This document shows positions 12,898 to 60,221 of a stretch of 64,000 bases of DNA, piece by piece. Under the pieces are notes generated by a model that was given only the letters and a program-made list of their open reading frames with translations, did not search any database and was not told where the DNA came from. The DNA is from Eledone cirrhosa (Eukaryota). Within the stretch, counting starts at the first letter, position 1. Each line of letters opens with the position of its first letter. The stretch covers positions 1,116,001-1,180,000 of the forward strand of contig OZ024750.1 in NCBI GenBank assembly GCA_964016885.1, written 5' to 3'. A program made the translations under genes and the position numbers.

Positions 12898-12945
<48 letters not shown>

Positions 12946-21404: not shown

Positions 21405-22895
21405 CTTTCTACCTATCTACCTGTCTATCTATGTATCTATCTACCTGTCTATCTGTCTATCTATCTTATATATGTACCTGTCTACCTGTCTATCTGTCTA
21501 TCTATCTTATATATGTACCTGTCTACCTGTCTATCTGTCTATCTATCTTATATATGTACCTGTCTACCTGTCTATCTGTCTATCTATCTTATCTATCTAC
21601 CTATCTACCTGTCTATCTGTCTATCTATCTTATATATCTACCTATCTACCTGTCTATCTGTCTATCTATCTTATATATGTACCTGTCTACCTGTCTATCT
21701 GTCTATCTATCTTATATATGTACCTGTCTACCTGTCTATCTGTCTATCTATCTTATATATGTACCTGTCTACCTGTCTATCTGTCTATTATCTTATATAT
21801 GTACCTGTCCCACTTTTGTATTTGTACTTGTCCCACTTTTGATGCCCTAGTGGCAAATAAAAGAAACATATCTTATATATGTACCTGTCTATCTGTCTAT
21901 CTAACTTATATATGTACCTGTCTACCTGTCTATCTGTCTATCTATCTTATATATTTACCTGTCTACCTGTCTATCTGTCTATCTATCTTATCTATCTACC
22001 TATCTACCTGTCTATCTATCTTATATATGTACCTGTCTACCTGTCTATCTGTCTATCTATCTACCTATCTACCTGTCTACCTGTCTATCTGTCTATCTAT
22101 CTTATATATGTACCTGTCTACCTGTCTATCTGTCTATCTATCTACCTATCTACCTGTCTACCTGTCTATCTGTCTATCTATCTTATCTATCTACCTGTCT
22201 ACCTGTCTATCTGTCTATCTATCTTATCTATCTACCTGTCTACCTGTCTATCTGTCTATCTATCTTATATATGTACCTGTCTACCTGTCTATCTGTCTAT
22301 CTATCTACCTATCTACCTGTCTACCTGTCTATCTGTCTATCTATCTTATATATGTACCTGTCTACCTGTCTATCTGTCTATCTATCTTATATATGTACCT
22401 GTCTACCTGTCTATCTGTCTATCTATCTTATATATTTACCTGTCTACCTGTCTATCTGTCTATCTATCTTATCTATCTACCTATCTACCTGTCTATCTAT
22501 CTTATATATGTACCTGTCTACCTGTCTATCTGTCTATCTATCTTATATATGTACCTGTCTACCTGTCTATCTGTCTATCTATCTTATATATTTACCTGTC
22601 TACCTGTCTATCTGTCTATCTATCTTATCTATCTACCTATCTACCTGTCTATCTATCTTATATATGTACCTGTCTACCTGTCTATCTGTCTATCTATCTT
22701 ATATATGTACCTGTCTACCTGTCTATCTGTCTATCTATCTTATCTATCTACCTATCTACCTGTCTATCTATCTTATATATGTACCTGTCTACCTGTCTAT
22801 CTGTCTATCTATCTTATATATGTACCTGTCTACCTGTCTATCTGTCTATCTATCTTATATATGTACCTGTCTACCTGTCTATCTGTCTATCTATA
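21405..22895. repeat. CTAT/CTGT/CTAC-derived minisatellite, ~41-bp higher-order unit
   Basis: Recurrent unit ATGTACCTGTCTACCTGTCTATCTGTCTATCTATCTTATAT (e.g. 21472-21512), with variants. Confidence 0.9.
21810..21868 (+). mobile_element. Severely 5'-truncated 3' end of a related Tx1-like LINE inserted in the minisatellite
   Basis: CCACTTTTGTATTTGTACTTGTCCCACTTTTGATGCCCTAGTGGCAAATAAAAGAAA resembles the LINE terminus CCCTTTGTATTTGTCCCTTCTTTTTATGCCTTTATGGTAAATAAAGAAA (~28649-28698). Confidence 0.7.
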
Positions 22896-22905
22896 TATTA
22901 TTTCA
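22886..22905 (+). repeat. 5' copy of the 20-bp target-site duplication of the LINE (3' copy at 28699-28718)
   Basis: TCTATCTATATATTATTTCA is read identically on both sides of the element. Confidence 0.9.
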
Positions 22906-22940
22906 ATCTAGCTGTCGTCTGTTCTACAGTGTGGATGTCA
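22906..22940 (+). promoter_or_regulatory. Candidate internal Pol II promoter of the LINE (DPE-like GGATG at +28 to +32)
   Basis: Taking the TSD-defined first base 22906 as +1, GGATG lies at 22933-22937. This matches DPE consensus RGWYV at the canonical spacing. The motif is short, so partly inference. Confidence 0.4.
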
Positions 22941-23134
22941 TTCACTTCGCACAGAAGTTTTGTTCAAATTTATTGAGGAAATTTTGTGAGTTCAAACTTA
23001 ATTTTGATACAATTGTGTAGCTTGACCCTCCGTCTGAACTGTCAGGCGGTGGGTCAGCTCATCTTTACCCCTCCTAGAGGTGAAAAACCTGTTTTAAAAA
23101 ATTTTGTGTAAAAAATTTCAATCGTCTAACAGAA

Positions 23135-25016
23135 ATGTTAAACGCAGCGAACGAAAATAGTGGTGGGGGGACAGCGGTAAGAGTTGTAAGCTCGCACGCT
23201 TTAGTCCTCCCTTCCTTCCCAACTAACGTCATAGAGAAGGAAGGAAAAATGAAAATAAAAACGGACGAATCTGCGGAGGAAAAAAAATTAAATGACGAAA
23301 ACAACGAAAAAAAAAAATTTGAAAAATTGCATGACAATACTAATAACACAAACAAAGACACAACAAACAAAAAAATAACAGTTGAAAATAACATAATATC
23401 AGAAAACAAAGCAGACGACAAGATTTCTTTTGCACAGAAAACAAAGAAATCTTTGACTTATATAGCGGAAAACATTTCAGATGTGGTACGAAGGATCACG
23501 GACGCAAAACAATACATAAGTGAAGGTGAGAATGGTATTTTATTGGTAAAAATGCCTCAAGAATTCACGAAAGACATTGAAAGCCGAACGGTCAAGTTTC
23601 GGACCATCAACAACAGTACAAAAAAACCTGAACAGCCTTCTCAAGCAGATATCAAAACAGTACTCGCAGAAGTACTGAATGAAACAACTTTCATAAGAAA
23701 AGACAGACTGTATGGAAGCCTAGCAATTATCATGAAGAACGAATCGGCGGCAAAAAAATGTGCTTTGTCACCGATTCGTTCGAAAAATTTCACCTTTTAT
23801 CCATCTTATATGGGGAAAAAAACTCAACGCATATGGCTGGATGCAATGATGCCAGATGTGGACTACTGCTGGCTCATAGCTGGCTTCATCGATCCAGTGA
23901 ATGACAACGTGATTTCCATTGGGAAAACCACAGGCAATGCGTTCAGTGGAACAGGTATAGAGCTGGTAGTACAAATGAAGCCTGAACGCATCGCCCAAAT
24001 ACCCGACAGAATCCTATTAGAGGACCACGGGTATATAAACATTAGCGTGGAGGGGAGAAGGCCGTCCTGCCATATCTGTGCAGGCAGAGGGCACCTGAAG
24101 GCCGCTTGTCCCCAACTCAACAAAAAGAAAACCCTGCTACCAACACCAGCTCCACCACCACCACCACAACAGATAAACAAACAACAAAACTCAGTCCCAC
24201 CCAACCCGTCCCTCAGTAACACCACAACACCACCACAACACAAACAGTCACAACACATTACCCCAAAACAAAATACAGGCCCACCCAACCTCTCACTCAA
24301 TAAAACAACACAACCACCGCAGACACAACACACAACACAGTCTAACATAGTGACATCCATCTCCCCCACAAAGAAAACCAACACGGAAACATTACCAGCA
24401 AACATACCTCTTCCCTCCAACACTGAAGATAACCCAACGAATTCGGAGGAAGAAACGGAGTCCTTCAGACAGATTAAAAGGAAAAAAAGAAAACATGTGC
24501 AAAACACACAAGGACAAACAACCCCCACCCAAATCGCAACACAATCTAACAAAACAGAAAACACCCCTCCAGCAACAAACAAAACCAAACCTGCCCCTCC
24601 CCTCTTCGAAACACTCACACCATCGGAAAAAAAAGACATTACACTATACTTACATCAACAGAAACAATAATAAATTAAATGAACTCATATACAATAATCC
24701 TTCGGTACAAACCGAAGGTGTAAACTTTGTTTCATCAGAAAACCACCCACATTTAAAACTAATAAAAATCCCAATGAACCTCTACCAAAAACTAAAAAAG
24801 GATTTTAAGGAGGACGTAGGACCACCCTCTGTCAAACCCATAAACCGCGTCCTACTAAAAAGCTTTCCCCCTCCCCTTCCCCTCCCCAACACAACTCCAA
24901 ACACCCCAACCCCACCACACACCGACGACCCCACACCACCACAAGACACCCCTTCACCCAACACCCCCGACCCCATGGAAGTCGTGCAACCCGAACCCCG
25001 GGAAGCGGAAAGGTAG
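23135..25016 (+). CDS. LINE ORF1 (gag-like nucleic-acid-binding protein), broken by a +1 frameshift at the A8 run 24627-24634
   Basis: 511-aa ORF 23135-24670 with a CX2CX4HX4C knuckle (CHICAGRGHLKAAC) and a Pro/Thr/Gln-rich tail. Removing one A from the run joins it to the frame running to TAG at 25014-25016 (SEKK-TLHYTYINR...EPREAER*). Confidence 0.85.
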
Positions 25017-25049
25017 GTCTCTACACTCTCCTTTGGCTCTGCCGCCCAC

Positions 25050-28000
25050 ATGGATGTGTTAAGAGTAGGATGTTTGAATGCACGTGGCCTGGGCTCAACT
25101 TGGAAGCAAGCAAAGCTTCTAAATGACCTCAGGTCATGTAGTATAAATGTAATGGTTATCTGTGAGACTCGAATCAGCGTCATGCGGCAGCTGGCCCCCA
25201 CCTTCGATGACTTTGAGGTGCATGCATCTCTCTGTCAACCTGGAGGTGGGGGTGGGGTTGTCGTGCTGCTGCAAAAACACCTGGGTCTTGCCGTACAGGT
25301 TGTGCACTCGGACCCGGAGGGTCGTTTGTTGGTGCTAGACGTTGGCAGTAGTGAAAGTGCGGCCTTGAGACTGGTCGCCGTCTACTCCCCTTTCGGAGCT
25401 GAACGGCCCGACTTCTTCCAGCGTTTGGAGACTTTTCTGGGAACGTCGCGTTCCCTGCTTCTAGCGGGGGATTGGAATGACATCCTAGATGCACGTTGGG
25501 ACTATGCAGGAGCATGTCCTAATAGAGGGGGGTGTAACAGCCTCAAGGGGTTACTCGACCGTTTTAACTTGGTCGATAGATATCGACTAGATTTTCCAAC
25601 TGTGCCTACCTGGACTTGGAGAAACCACAGTGGTCAATCTAGATCGTACTTAGATAGATTCTTAGTTAGAAGTAAGGATAGGGACATATTAAGCTGTCCA
25701 GAAATGCGCACGGTTGGCTACACGGATCACAAATTAGTGACCTGCGTAATCTCGAGAAAACACATAGACAGGGTCCCGGTTACTGGAAACTTAATTTGGC
25801 TTTACCGGCAAAAGAGACTTACAGAAACCGGATTAGCAGATTAGTTAAGGAGAGGTTGACGGGTGCAATCGTCAACAACCGATGGTGGGCATCTCTCAAA
25901 AGAGAGATTAGAACAGAATCAATAAGTTATAGCAAGATGTTAGCTGCCAATAGGAATAGAAACGAGAAAGAATTAACAGGTAAATTAGAAGAGGCAATCA
26001 AGAGCGAAGATGTGGCCAGAGTGCTGGCATCGAGGACGGCCTTGAACCAGTTTTTCGATGCAAAGCATGAAGGCTGCGTCATTCGAAGTAAAATACGTGC
26101 TCTAGGTAATGAGGGGGCCAAAGCCGTTGGATGGGCCCGCGTGACAGAAGCTAAAAGTGGAAATCGATCCACCATCCGGTCGTTGCAAGACGAAGATGGA
26201 CGAGTGATCCGGGAGCCTAAGCAGATGTGCGAGGCCTTTCAAAAGCACTTTGCCCGATTGTTCGGGGGAGGCGAGGGTCCGGGCCGGGGCGTGGATTTCG
26301 GTCCATACCTCGACGGCCTGCCGCGTCTCTCGAACAAAGAGGCAGAGTCCTGCGAGGGACCAATCTCGGCTGATGAGATCGGAGATGCGCTGAGCCAATG
26401 CAGCAGACGCAAATCTCCAGGTCTCGATGGTATACCTTACGAACTTTATTTAGCAATGCCGGTCTTCTTCTCCGAACTCCTCGAAGCGGTCTACTGCAAT
26501 TGGCAGCAGAACGGGAGAATTCCTTGTTCTGTAGCCAAGGGCGTAGTCACGCTGGTGAGGAAGGACGAGAACAAGGGGGATAGTATAAATAATTTTCGGC
26601 CCATAACCCTGCTAAACACAGAGTTAAAGATTTTGGCCAAGGTGTTAGCAAAGAGGTTGGCGCTTGTCGTGGGTGGCCTGGTGGGAGATGCGCAGACATG
26701 TGCTATCCCATCCAGGTCCATTCACGATAACCTCCACCTCATGCGATACATCATAGAGAGGGTTGGCAACAAACCCGGCTTCGGTGGGGCCCTGATCAAC
26801 TTGGATCAGTCTAAGGCCTTCGATAGGGTCGACCATGGTTACCTGGATGCGGTGCTAGCGGCGGCTGGGTTCGGTCCTGTTTTCAGAGGCTGGATCACTG
26901 CCCTACATAGCAACCACATCTGTTCTAGGATCAAGGTGAACGGCTACCTTTCGAAGCCGTTCGAAATCACACGATCCATTCGACAGGGGTGCCCTCTCTC
27001 CTCCCTTCTGTACGTATTGACTCTCGAGCCTTTACTGAGGAAGTTGGAGTTGTTGCAGGGTATCCCCCTGGAACCAGGATTGAGCAAAGCGGTGTCGGCC
27101 TACGCCGATGACGTAACAGTAATGGTATCAACCGACTCGGAGATCGAGGCGATCGGTACCTTACTGGAGGAGTACGAAAGGTTGTCAGGAGCGAAACTGA
27201 ACCGGGAAAAATCCATCGGGCTGCAACTCGGAACGTGGAGAGGCAAACCGATGCCTCCTGACGGTGTCGTCGGACACTGGACGGAGGGCCCGGTAAAGTT
27301 GCTTGGGGTCTGGTTTGGACCGGACCTCCAGGTGGAAAAGAACTGGAACGAGGTTACGAACAAGGTGTTTGCACTAACCCAGAAATGGGCCAAGTGTAAG
27401 CTGTCCCTAAAAGGCCGGGCGGAGGTGGCGAACATTTACATAGCGTCCGTCACTTACTACCGCCTGACTGTCGTGCCTTGCCCTAAGGAAACACTCACCA
27501 CCATGGAACGCATGCTCTTCCAATTTCTTTGGAAGAAGCGTCCTCCTATGGTGAGAAGATCCATCTGCTGCCAACAACCTTCGAAAGGAGGGCTGGGGAT
27601 GCCGTGGTTGATGATGCGTAGGCACGCATTAAGGCTACGGCACCTACAGGTATTCCTCACTGGTCAACCGGTGTGGGCTCCGTTCGTGAAACGAGCCTTT
27701 CCGAGACTCGTCTCACTCACCGAGCTACAGTCCTGGGTCAAGCAAAGATCCGGAAAACTGGGAGACTGGCACACTGAGTGTGCTCAGGCGCTCAGGGCTC
27801 TCTGGCAAGCGGGCCGGGCCATCGGTGGAGAATCCACCTCATCATTCTATAGAGGGCTGGTGGCTAGCAGGGGCGATGACACCCTTGGAGAGTCGCTGGA
27901 CATGGAAGAAGACGAACTGGCCAGCCTGTTCGGTAGGACTTTCGGCCCAGGACCAATGGACAACTTCCAGAAGTCACTGGCCTGGCAGTGCTACCGAGGG

Positions 28001-28483
28001 GCTCTACCCGTTCGAGAGAGGCTCTACAGACACGGGCGCCCGGGCAGGGATCCCTCAAAAAAGATTTGCCCTAGATGCGTGCGTCACGAAGAAACCGTGG
28101 CGCACGCATTGGTGCAATGTCCGGGCGTGGCTGATCTGTGGGGCTACGCCGAACAACTGCTGTCGCGGGTGGCGCCGATTAAATTGACCGCCGAGTCCGT
28201 GATGACAATCAAACCGCCTCCCCTCTTCACAAAGGAAGCAAAGGCGGTTTTTCTGTGCGTAATAGCCATGTTGAAAGAGGTTGTTTGGTGGACACGATTG
28301 AAAGGTCTGAGGTCAGGCAACTTCCTCTCTGGCCATAGTCTGGTCTACTTCTTCCGATATCACTTCGGAAGAAGGATAAGAATGGAGAGAGAGGTGCTTG
28401 GCCACAGGCAGTTTTATGAAAGGTGGGTGATAGTGGCGAGAATGGCTCGTGTAAATGGGCCTTCTCTGTATACCATCCTGTAG
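25050..28483 (+). CDS. LINE ORF2: apurinic-like endonuclease + reverse transcriptase + C-terminal zinc knuckle, with one -1 frameshift near 25745-25760
   Basis: APE motifs: LNARGL, ICETR, GRLL, VYSP, GDWN, TWTW, SYLDRF, TDHKLV. After the frameshift, the conserved linker GPGYWKLN. RT motifs: SPGLDG, FRPITLLN, LDQSKAFDRVDH, RQGCPLS, YADD. C-terminal CPRC-x8-H-x4-C. Confidence 0.95.
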
Positions 28484-28999
28484 GTAAAGAAGTAAAGGAG
28501 AGGGGAACACCTTCTCCATGTGCTCCCCGGGCAAAGGATTGCACACTTTTTCGGGGGTGTGTGCAACCCCCATCACGTCCCCTCCCTTTTGAGGTTATTT
28601 TCGATTATTTTCATGTTACACCCTTTTTACTCGATTATATGTAAACTCCCCCTTTGTATTTGTCCCTTCTTTTTATGCCTTTATGGTAAATAAAGAAATC
28701 TATCTATATATTATTTCAGATGAAAGTGACTTCTACTCGTACATAACCTTTTCATTCGAAAAGGTTATGTACGAGTAGAAGTCACTTTCTTCATCATTTT
28801 ACTATTTTACTGAAATGAAACAGCATTAGTCCTGTAGATGTCATTTCCGTCTGAAATAAATGTATTGTGTACTTTATTCAACTGTTGCCTCTTTCCGTTT
28901 ATTAACGTAAAACCATTCTCTCTCTCCCTTCCCCTTTCTCTCTCTCTCTCTATATATATATACATGTACATACATATATAAATGTATCTATACACACGC

Positions 29000-60081: not shown

Positions 60082-60221
<140 letters not shown>

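Follow-up and report, generated by a model that had tools for sequence, protein, structure and literature searches.

Two insertions of a young Tx1-type LINE lineage in one TATC-rich minisatellite of Eledone cirrhosa and the TAT[C/A]T flanks of its sister families

The window analyzed here is a stretch of 64,000 nucleotides from Eledone cirrhosa (contig OZ024750.1; C10:1116001-1180000 of the microsatellite-rich, 3.0-Gb genome that was scanned), and it contains a minisatellite with two long interspersed element (LINE) insertions of the Tx1 type. At this locus two sister families of a young lineage, here called family A and family B, have each inserted once, in separate events. A full-length element of family A and a 59-bp piece of family B share their orientation and are both followed by TATC, as the first-pass annotation had supposed when it read the array as the site of two independent events. 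The features are listed below with open reading frames (ORFs), untranslated region (UTR), target-site duplications (TSDs), apurinic/apyrimidinic-type endonuclease (APE) and reverse transcriptase (RT) abbreviated.

21405..22905, no strand: host array of both insertions, a 41-bp minisatellite of TATC/TGTC/TACC units and TTATATATG
21789..21809, + strand: left copy of a 21-bp repeat; its last 10 nt resemble the TGTACTTGTC of family B (likely 5' microhomology)
21810..21868, + strand: family B insertion, extremely 5'-truncated; 21821-21868 is the B 3' end of the CA-ending type
21869..21889, + strand: right copy of the 21-bp repeat, beginning with TATCT
22888..22905, + strand: left TSD of family A, TATCTATATATTATTTCA; the final A may be the first base of the element, and a TC of the target precedes
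22906..28700, + strand: family A Tx1-type LINE, full-length, 5.8 kb, without poly(A) tail
23135..25016, + strand: ORF1, 626 amino acids when unbroken, one CCHC knuckle; a frameshift near 24634 splits the window copy
25050..28483, + strand: ORF2, 1,145 amino acids when unbroken, with APE, RT and C-terminal zinc motif; frameshift near 25747
28484..28700, + strand: 3' UTR with AATAAA at 28689-28694, ending with GAAA and a subfamily-specific TC
28701..28718, + strand: right TSD of family A

According to TRF the minisatellite spans 21408-22894 with a period of 41, 37.4 copies and 86% matches, and 127 of the 381 TATCT sites of the window fall inside it. The window contains the 20-mer TCTATCTATATATTATTTCA at 22886 and 28699 and nowhere else; the two copies lie on either side of the 5.8-kb element, and the left one closes the array. 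This agrees with the earlier placement of the TSD at the end of the minisatellite; as to its extent, the repeat is real and its first two bases, TC, most likely belong to the element, which leaves 22888-22905 and 28701-28718 as the duplication. The element had also been called full-length. Its length was borne out, but its ORFs are not intact, as the copy carries the two frameshifts listed above, which are private to it and absent in 23 of 23 near-identical copies. Many further full-length copies are 99.6-99.9% identical to the window element. Among 25 listed TC-ending full-length copies, which were chosen as best hits so that the sample leans young, 23 have an open ORF2 of 1,145 amino acids and 19 also an ORF1 of 625-626 amino acids. 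In a search with the RT domain, every one of the best 124 candidates scored had 100% identity. Family A is very young and presumably still moving. In the Pro/Thr/Gln-rich part of ORF1 there is an 84-bp tandem duplication (window 24165-24339).

Within the window, and the element itself aside, no sequence matches the element's end better than the 59-bp piece. Aligned with the element's last 47 nt it scores 45, a value reached by none of 10,000 shuffles (maximum 29). It had been described as a diverged version of the element's end, and this similarity is real. Its identity as a diverged family A copy did not hold, because its last 48 nt (21821-21868) are, base for base, the 3' end of family B; we therefore regard it as a separate insertion and not as decayed family A. 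The expectation that the piece aligns with the 3' end of a related LINE was thus confirmed by an exact match, and its orientation, which is that of the element, and its 3' junction into TATC were found as described. A 37-mer taken from the piece is present without mismatch at 1,893 places in the genome. Thirty of these were fetched, and in 29 the sequence upstream is ORF2 or 3' UTR about 80-84% identical to the window element; the remaining one is a stub of ~70 nt (L076). Full-length copies of family B exist, with an ORF2 of 1,145 amino acids and 84% identity to that of family A. The full-length B copies L142, L143, L149 and L157 have TATC...TCTCT in common just 5' of their unique start, which suggests that the upstream repeat travels with the element or serves 5' joining.

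The 21-bp repeat flanking the piece fits a target duplication of this insertion. In the array register 80 equals 59 + 21, and a target deletion of 20 bp is formally equivalent, the array period being 41. This equivalence, together with the position of the piece in a tandem array that is unstable and has irregular units to the left and right of it, would also suit a remnant of a longer family B copy that was trimmed by recombination of the array rather than inserted in truncated form. We consider trimming quite improbable: the 21-bp repeat begins with TATCT and has a length that matches the duplications of the family, at the 5' junction there are a 10-nt look-alike and a short internal repeat, features to be expected of 5' joining (21810-21820 repeats part of the family B 3' end, with a TRF period-23 match at 21796-21841), and further very short B copies such as the stub mentioned above are known in this genome. 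Trimmed or primary, the piece is a separate insertion of family B.

The terminal 30-mer of family A is found 1,386 times in the genome as an exact match; of these copies, 1,346 (~97%) are followed by NN-TAT[C/A]T, 768 by NCTATCT and 905 (65%) by NN-TATCTATCT; after the family B ends, NN-TAT[C/A]T was found in 1,841 of 1,893 cases (~97%). In a background sample of 20 stretches of 10 kb at round coordinates, TAT[C/A]T starts at 12,937 of 398,936 positions (3.2%; 12,306 TATAT and 631 TATCT) and TATCTATCT at 17 (~0.004%). This corresponds to a 30-fold enrichment for TAT[C/A]T and to one of about four orders of magnitude for TATCTATCT, the latter being a rough value due to the 17 background counts. 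The ratio of TATCT to TATAT is 90:10 in family A and 83:17 in family B among the first 100 sites listed, counted by hand, in comparison to 1:20 in the background. Among the best 40 matches, which are copies with 99.8-100% mutual identity, 39 begin with TCTATCT, and with a loose pattern for related ends TAT[C/A]T was found at most 4 bases on in 135 of 138 cases, including 18 from further subfamilies. Copies are frequently stacked head to tail, and one of 20 copies picked as lacking NCTATCT lay in (TC)n (L101).

The 3' flanks are therefore non-random, with the TATC/CTAT enrichment that the first-pass annotation had expected. Its idea of a lineage at (CTAT/ATAG)n stands as far as this enrichment is concerned, but not for pure (CTAT)n, as single C|TATCT and some (TA)n sites are used as well. 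A share of more than 20% of flanks in one repeat type has been taken to indicate a microsatellite target (PMC4494074; this and the other PMC articles are cited for the passages concerned), and the shares of TATCTATCT (65%) and TAT[C/A]T (97%) among family A ends both lie far above it. Contigs from two other organisms (X5 and X6, one or two each) have an element end that runs into TCTATCTAT..., a suggestive sign of the same target flank. They match the 3' part of the element at 99%, which could point to close species or recent transfer, and 21-53% of the element's sampled words are present in sequencing runs of five other organisms (X5-X9). A pure (ATCT)35 array at 60082-60221 of the window has no adjoining related element end and represents an unoccupied potential target.

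Both junctions were fetched for 110 copies (80 of family A, 30 of family B), among which 5' truncation is common and the 3' end is fixed. A duplication of 13-24 bp, mostly 16-21 bp, could be anchored in 40 of them; at the 5' junction it starts with TATCT in 35 copies and with TATAT in five. Because the motif is present at the 5' junction of these 40 copies and runs into unique DNA, it was the target before insertion and is not a tail made by the element. TATC-like repeats also extend onto the side that is not duplicated. The two bases after GAAA track the subfamily: they are TC in the youngest family A copies (median identity 99.8%), TA in older ones (96.7%), and CT, CA or TA in family B. They come from the element, because the targets of TA-ending family A copies carry TC at 13 of 18 anchored sites. 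The TSD proper begins at TATCT, so a nick of the bottom strand at 5'-AGATA/G-3' is likely. The base before the duplication is C at 32 of the 40 anchored sites. Against a background of 19%, C likewise occupies this position at 12 of the 18 TATCT sites with an element ending in a base other than C (p 1.5e-5), and at 7 of the 11 sites outside repeats (p 1.6e-3). A search with free offset gave best offsets of 0-2 in most of the first 40 rows. In full-length family A copies (L035-L066), 1-5 variable extra bases (TA, CA, ATA, AG) separate the duplication from the element start, possibly as untemplated additions. Directly 3' of the right TSD in the window there is a perfect inverted repeat of 32 bp with a 4-nt loop (28722-28789, z -17). 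The idea that this hairpin is a targeted part of another repeat was rejected because it is single-copy in the genome.

Several points weigh against this reading of the junctions. The motif is absent at 40 of 1,386 family A ends and at 52 of 1,893 family B ends, the repeat counts are inflated by tandem re-insertion next to older copies, and the background is limited to 20 round-coordinate stretches with a TATCTATCT count of just 17. Among the 110 copies, 11 are without duplication (some of these are script failures at subfamily switches), five are without 5' junction and 54 are too repetitive, short or long to anchor. The p value of 1.5e-5 is inflated by repeat context, with TATC upstream at 9 of the 12 sites. 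In family B only 4 of 30 copies could be anchored, three of which have A and not C before the duplication; family B is thus weakly covered, and it is looser.

The domains PF03372, PF00078 and PF13966, the last slightly below the cut-off, were identified in ORF2. Its best match in the PDB is human L1 ORF2p (E 1.5e-50; R2 proteins 1e-20), with which it is co-linear over residues 8-855 (175 bits), and the APE catalytic motifs align with those of L1-EN. By its ORF2 of APE, RT and zinc motif, its TSDs, the fixed 3' end and the 5' truncation, family A is a retrotransposon without long terminal repeats (non-LTR) of the APE type and the L1 group. The phmmer scores of 328 bits for Xenopus Tx1L, 300 for Polyodon YTX2 and 363 for Tetraodon Q76IM5 support a Tx1 affinity, ORF2 being apparently closer to Tx1 references than to vertebrate L1. 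The Tx1-type call of the first-pass annotation is thus sustained by 328 bits to Tx1L versus 175 to human L1 and by the CCHC-type ORF1. A quick RT tree of 43 rows contains Tx1L but lacks a row for vertebrate L1, its outgroup branch is very long and its base is open; in it the lineage lies outside a 100%-supported group of Tx1L and a Tetraodon pol-like protein. This tree, in which no Kibi or Koshi row is labelled, suggests that microsatellite targeting may be of separate origin here. In ORF1 one CCHC knuckle is visible, with Pfam zf-CCHC under the cut-off (E 0.32 and 0.051), and a Pfam scan for RRM and Transposase_22 found neither. The atlas neighbours of ORF1 at 0.90-0.92 carry zf-CCHC, RRM_1 or ZCCHC3 RNA-binding domains. 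An ORF1 of RRM/CCHC type, and not Transposase_22, is associated with Tx1 (PMC5203782); for a link between ZCCHC3 and Tx1 no confirmation was found in the literature searched. The closest named relative is a protein of Argonauta hians with 63-67% identity. Distant ORF2 relatives in clusters of Patella caerulea (P0215) and Metynnis hypsauchen (P0258) have near-consecutive locus tags on one contig, a pattern as would be expected of tandem site-specific insertion.

Two of the background stretches held relatives that end in GAAA-TC-(ATT)n, namely L165 (2824-8848; 67% ORF2 identity) and L173. The terminal 31-mer of the L165 type has 6,357 copies in the genome, 5,751 of them followed by NN-ATYATY, and ATTATT was found at all of the first 100 ends listed. 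The L173-type end has 55 copies, and the flanks of the 30 examined are ATT-rich. In 20 longer stretches of this ATT group, (ATT)n was present at the 5' start in all nine that reach there, and duplications were anchored in two copies only (L242, 18 bp; L282, 16 bp), so that for the ATT group the evidence for a target rather than a tail is weaker. The C-terminal part of ORF2 was used for a quick tree of 25 rows, 12 of them locus rows selected by clustering; its six TATC rows group together in a single clade (100% SH-aLRT), with the six ATT rows outside. The target label follows the ORF2 tree. The ATT rows are joined only weakly (81), so that the switch between ATT and TATC may have gone in either direction. 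Head-to-tail arrays with a spacing of ~6 kb also occur in the ATT group (e.g. C1:55,423,680-55,449,641). In seven of the 20 copies (L272, L273, L274, L279, L283, L286, L287) the similarity to L165 breaks off at ~2,266, close to where ORF1 ends, a shared break pointing to a subfamily with a different ORF1 and 5' region.

LINEs of this group are known to insert by target-primed reverse transcription, and we think it likely that the APE endonuclease of ORF2 is the main reader of C|TAT[C/A]T. The endonuclease would nick the GATA (bottom) strand of the repeat at the site given above, the freed 3' end would prime reverse transcription and the second strand would be cut ~18 bp downstream; pairing of the primer with a short stretch of read-through UAUC at the end of the RNA possibly helps. 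The general course of the reaction is outlined in PMC3812793. We infer that the endonuclease carries the target preference, and reading by the endonuclease and pairing of RNA and primer may both act. Nicking by the Tx1L endonuclease in isolation is almost wholly confined to its own target; the choice of target is influenced by the hairpin loop of this enzyme, but loop grafts gave no modular transfer of specificity (PMC1950540).

If pairing were the main filter, a loose endonuclease would nick AT-rich sites and only nicks that pair with a read-through (UAUC)n would lead to insertion. The best-conserved target bases, +1 to +5, are indeed the very ones with which a UAUCU end of the RNA would pair, the absence of a poly(A) tail and the AATAAA only 6 nt from the end make it likely that transcripts enter the flank, and an inherited read-through tail would equally let the flank of the sister groups follow their lineage. 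We nevertheless consider pairing unlikely as the main filter: an RNA with A or T at the position concerned cannot pair with the base before the TSD, yet this base is C in 12 of the 18 sites of this kind and in 7 of the 11 outside repeats. Pairing inside a tandem repeat would, furthermore, leave room for slippage by whole units, but the register is constant.

Two explanations without any targeting are close to excluded. TATC runs made by the element as tails after untargeted insertion, i.e. a seeding of microsatellites, would account for the repeat behind nearly all 3' ends and for a few copies (L055, L129) whose TATC run at the 3' end has no counterpart at the 5' junction, but the 40 anchored copies carry TATCT or TATAT at the 5' junction too (e.g. 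L022, L039, L052, L058, L099, L137) and TATC-like repeats go on beyond the duplication, so that seeding seems very improbable. Still harder to believe is random insertion with survival solely in microsatellites, by selection or low recombination. An accumulation of this kind near (CA)n has been proposed for Drosophila Waldo-A/B (PMC3812793), but here copies with 99.8-100% identity are already patterned (39 of the 40 best matches), the register is defined to a single base, the orientation is fixed and the far commoner (TA)n is avoided.

Reading by the endonuclease remains our preferred explanation; a more tentative proposal concerns the ATT group. In the APE domain (about residues 1-240), surface segments around residues 21-22, 62-64 and 114 and at the hairpin tip near 192 differ between family A and a family of the ATT group (D). 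It is conceivable that co-active octopod sisters with about one third of ORF2 different underwent a natural switch of specificity between (TATC)n and (ATT)n through a few surface residues of the APE domain. If true, the recognition code for microsatellites could be mapped through domain swaps, and the elements, which would have duplicated and re-entered their targets on thousands of occasions, would multiply GATA and ATT loci in a genome already very rich in microsatellites. In a survey of eukaryotic genomes, none exceeded octopus, a relative of the host, in microsatellite count (PMC6387519), and the recognition of microsatellites by APE-type LINEs has been described as poorly understood (PMC3812793). 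The lineage offers thousands of young insertions for a base-level target profile, many copies with open ORFs, and sisters with 67% ORF2 identity on a different repeat, which makes the determinants of specificity accessible to direct comparison.

It has been known since 2004 that Tx1 elements can aim at simple repeats. Microsatellites are also targets in other clades of non-LTR elements, with Dong in the R4 clade and Waldo and Mino in the R1 clade. GATA, which is well supported, and ATT, which is less well shown, are added here to the targets of Tx1-type elements as a variant of this principle. No report of a LINE targeting TATC/GATA was found in a literature search with a scope that excludes Repbase, Dfam, subscription journals and the supplement of PMC4494074, which may list more targets. 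For Octopus vulgaris, 80 L1-Tx1 families have been described, 13 of them recently active with 421 insertions (PMC13282606), and relatives of the present lineage may be among them; the main text of this article has no whole-word match for "target site" or "microsatellite", and one of its supplements none for "target". Human LINE-1 resembles family A in its co-linear ORF2, TSDs and 5' truncation, but it has a loose TTTT/AA target (PMC1950540), a poly(A) tail, which family A lacks, and the ORF1 domain that our Pfam scan did not find. Dong, DongAg and DongBg on (TAA)n, Waldo on (ACAY)n and Mino on (AC)n are further microsatellite-targeting non-LTR elements, none of which is listed with a GATA target in the passages concerned (PMC3812793), and the repeat class of Dong is that of the ATT sisters described here. 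Tx1L of Xenopus laevis (YTX2_XENLA) shares two ORFs, an ORF2 of APE, RT and zinc motif, and sequence-specific insertion (30% identity over 910 columns); in contrast, its target is a site in the DNA transposon Tx1D, its ORF2 has 1,308 instead of 1,145 amino acids and its hairpin loop is two residues longer. The nearest parallels are Kibi on (TC)n and Koshi on (TTC)n in teleosts and the crocodilian Tx1 families on (TTCC)n/(TTTC)n (PMC4494074, PMC3812793), which likewise are Tx1-type APE LINEs that enter microsatellites. Insertion into (TC)n or (TTC)n of the Kibi/Koshi type is not what we observed, as the junctions begin with TATCT or TATAT; the lineage differs from these elements in its target, which is TATC/GATA, and ATT in the sister group, and no pure pyrimidine repeat, and in its invertebrate host.

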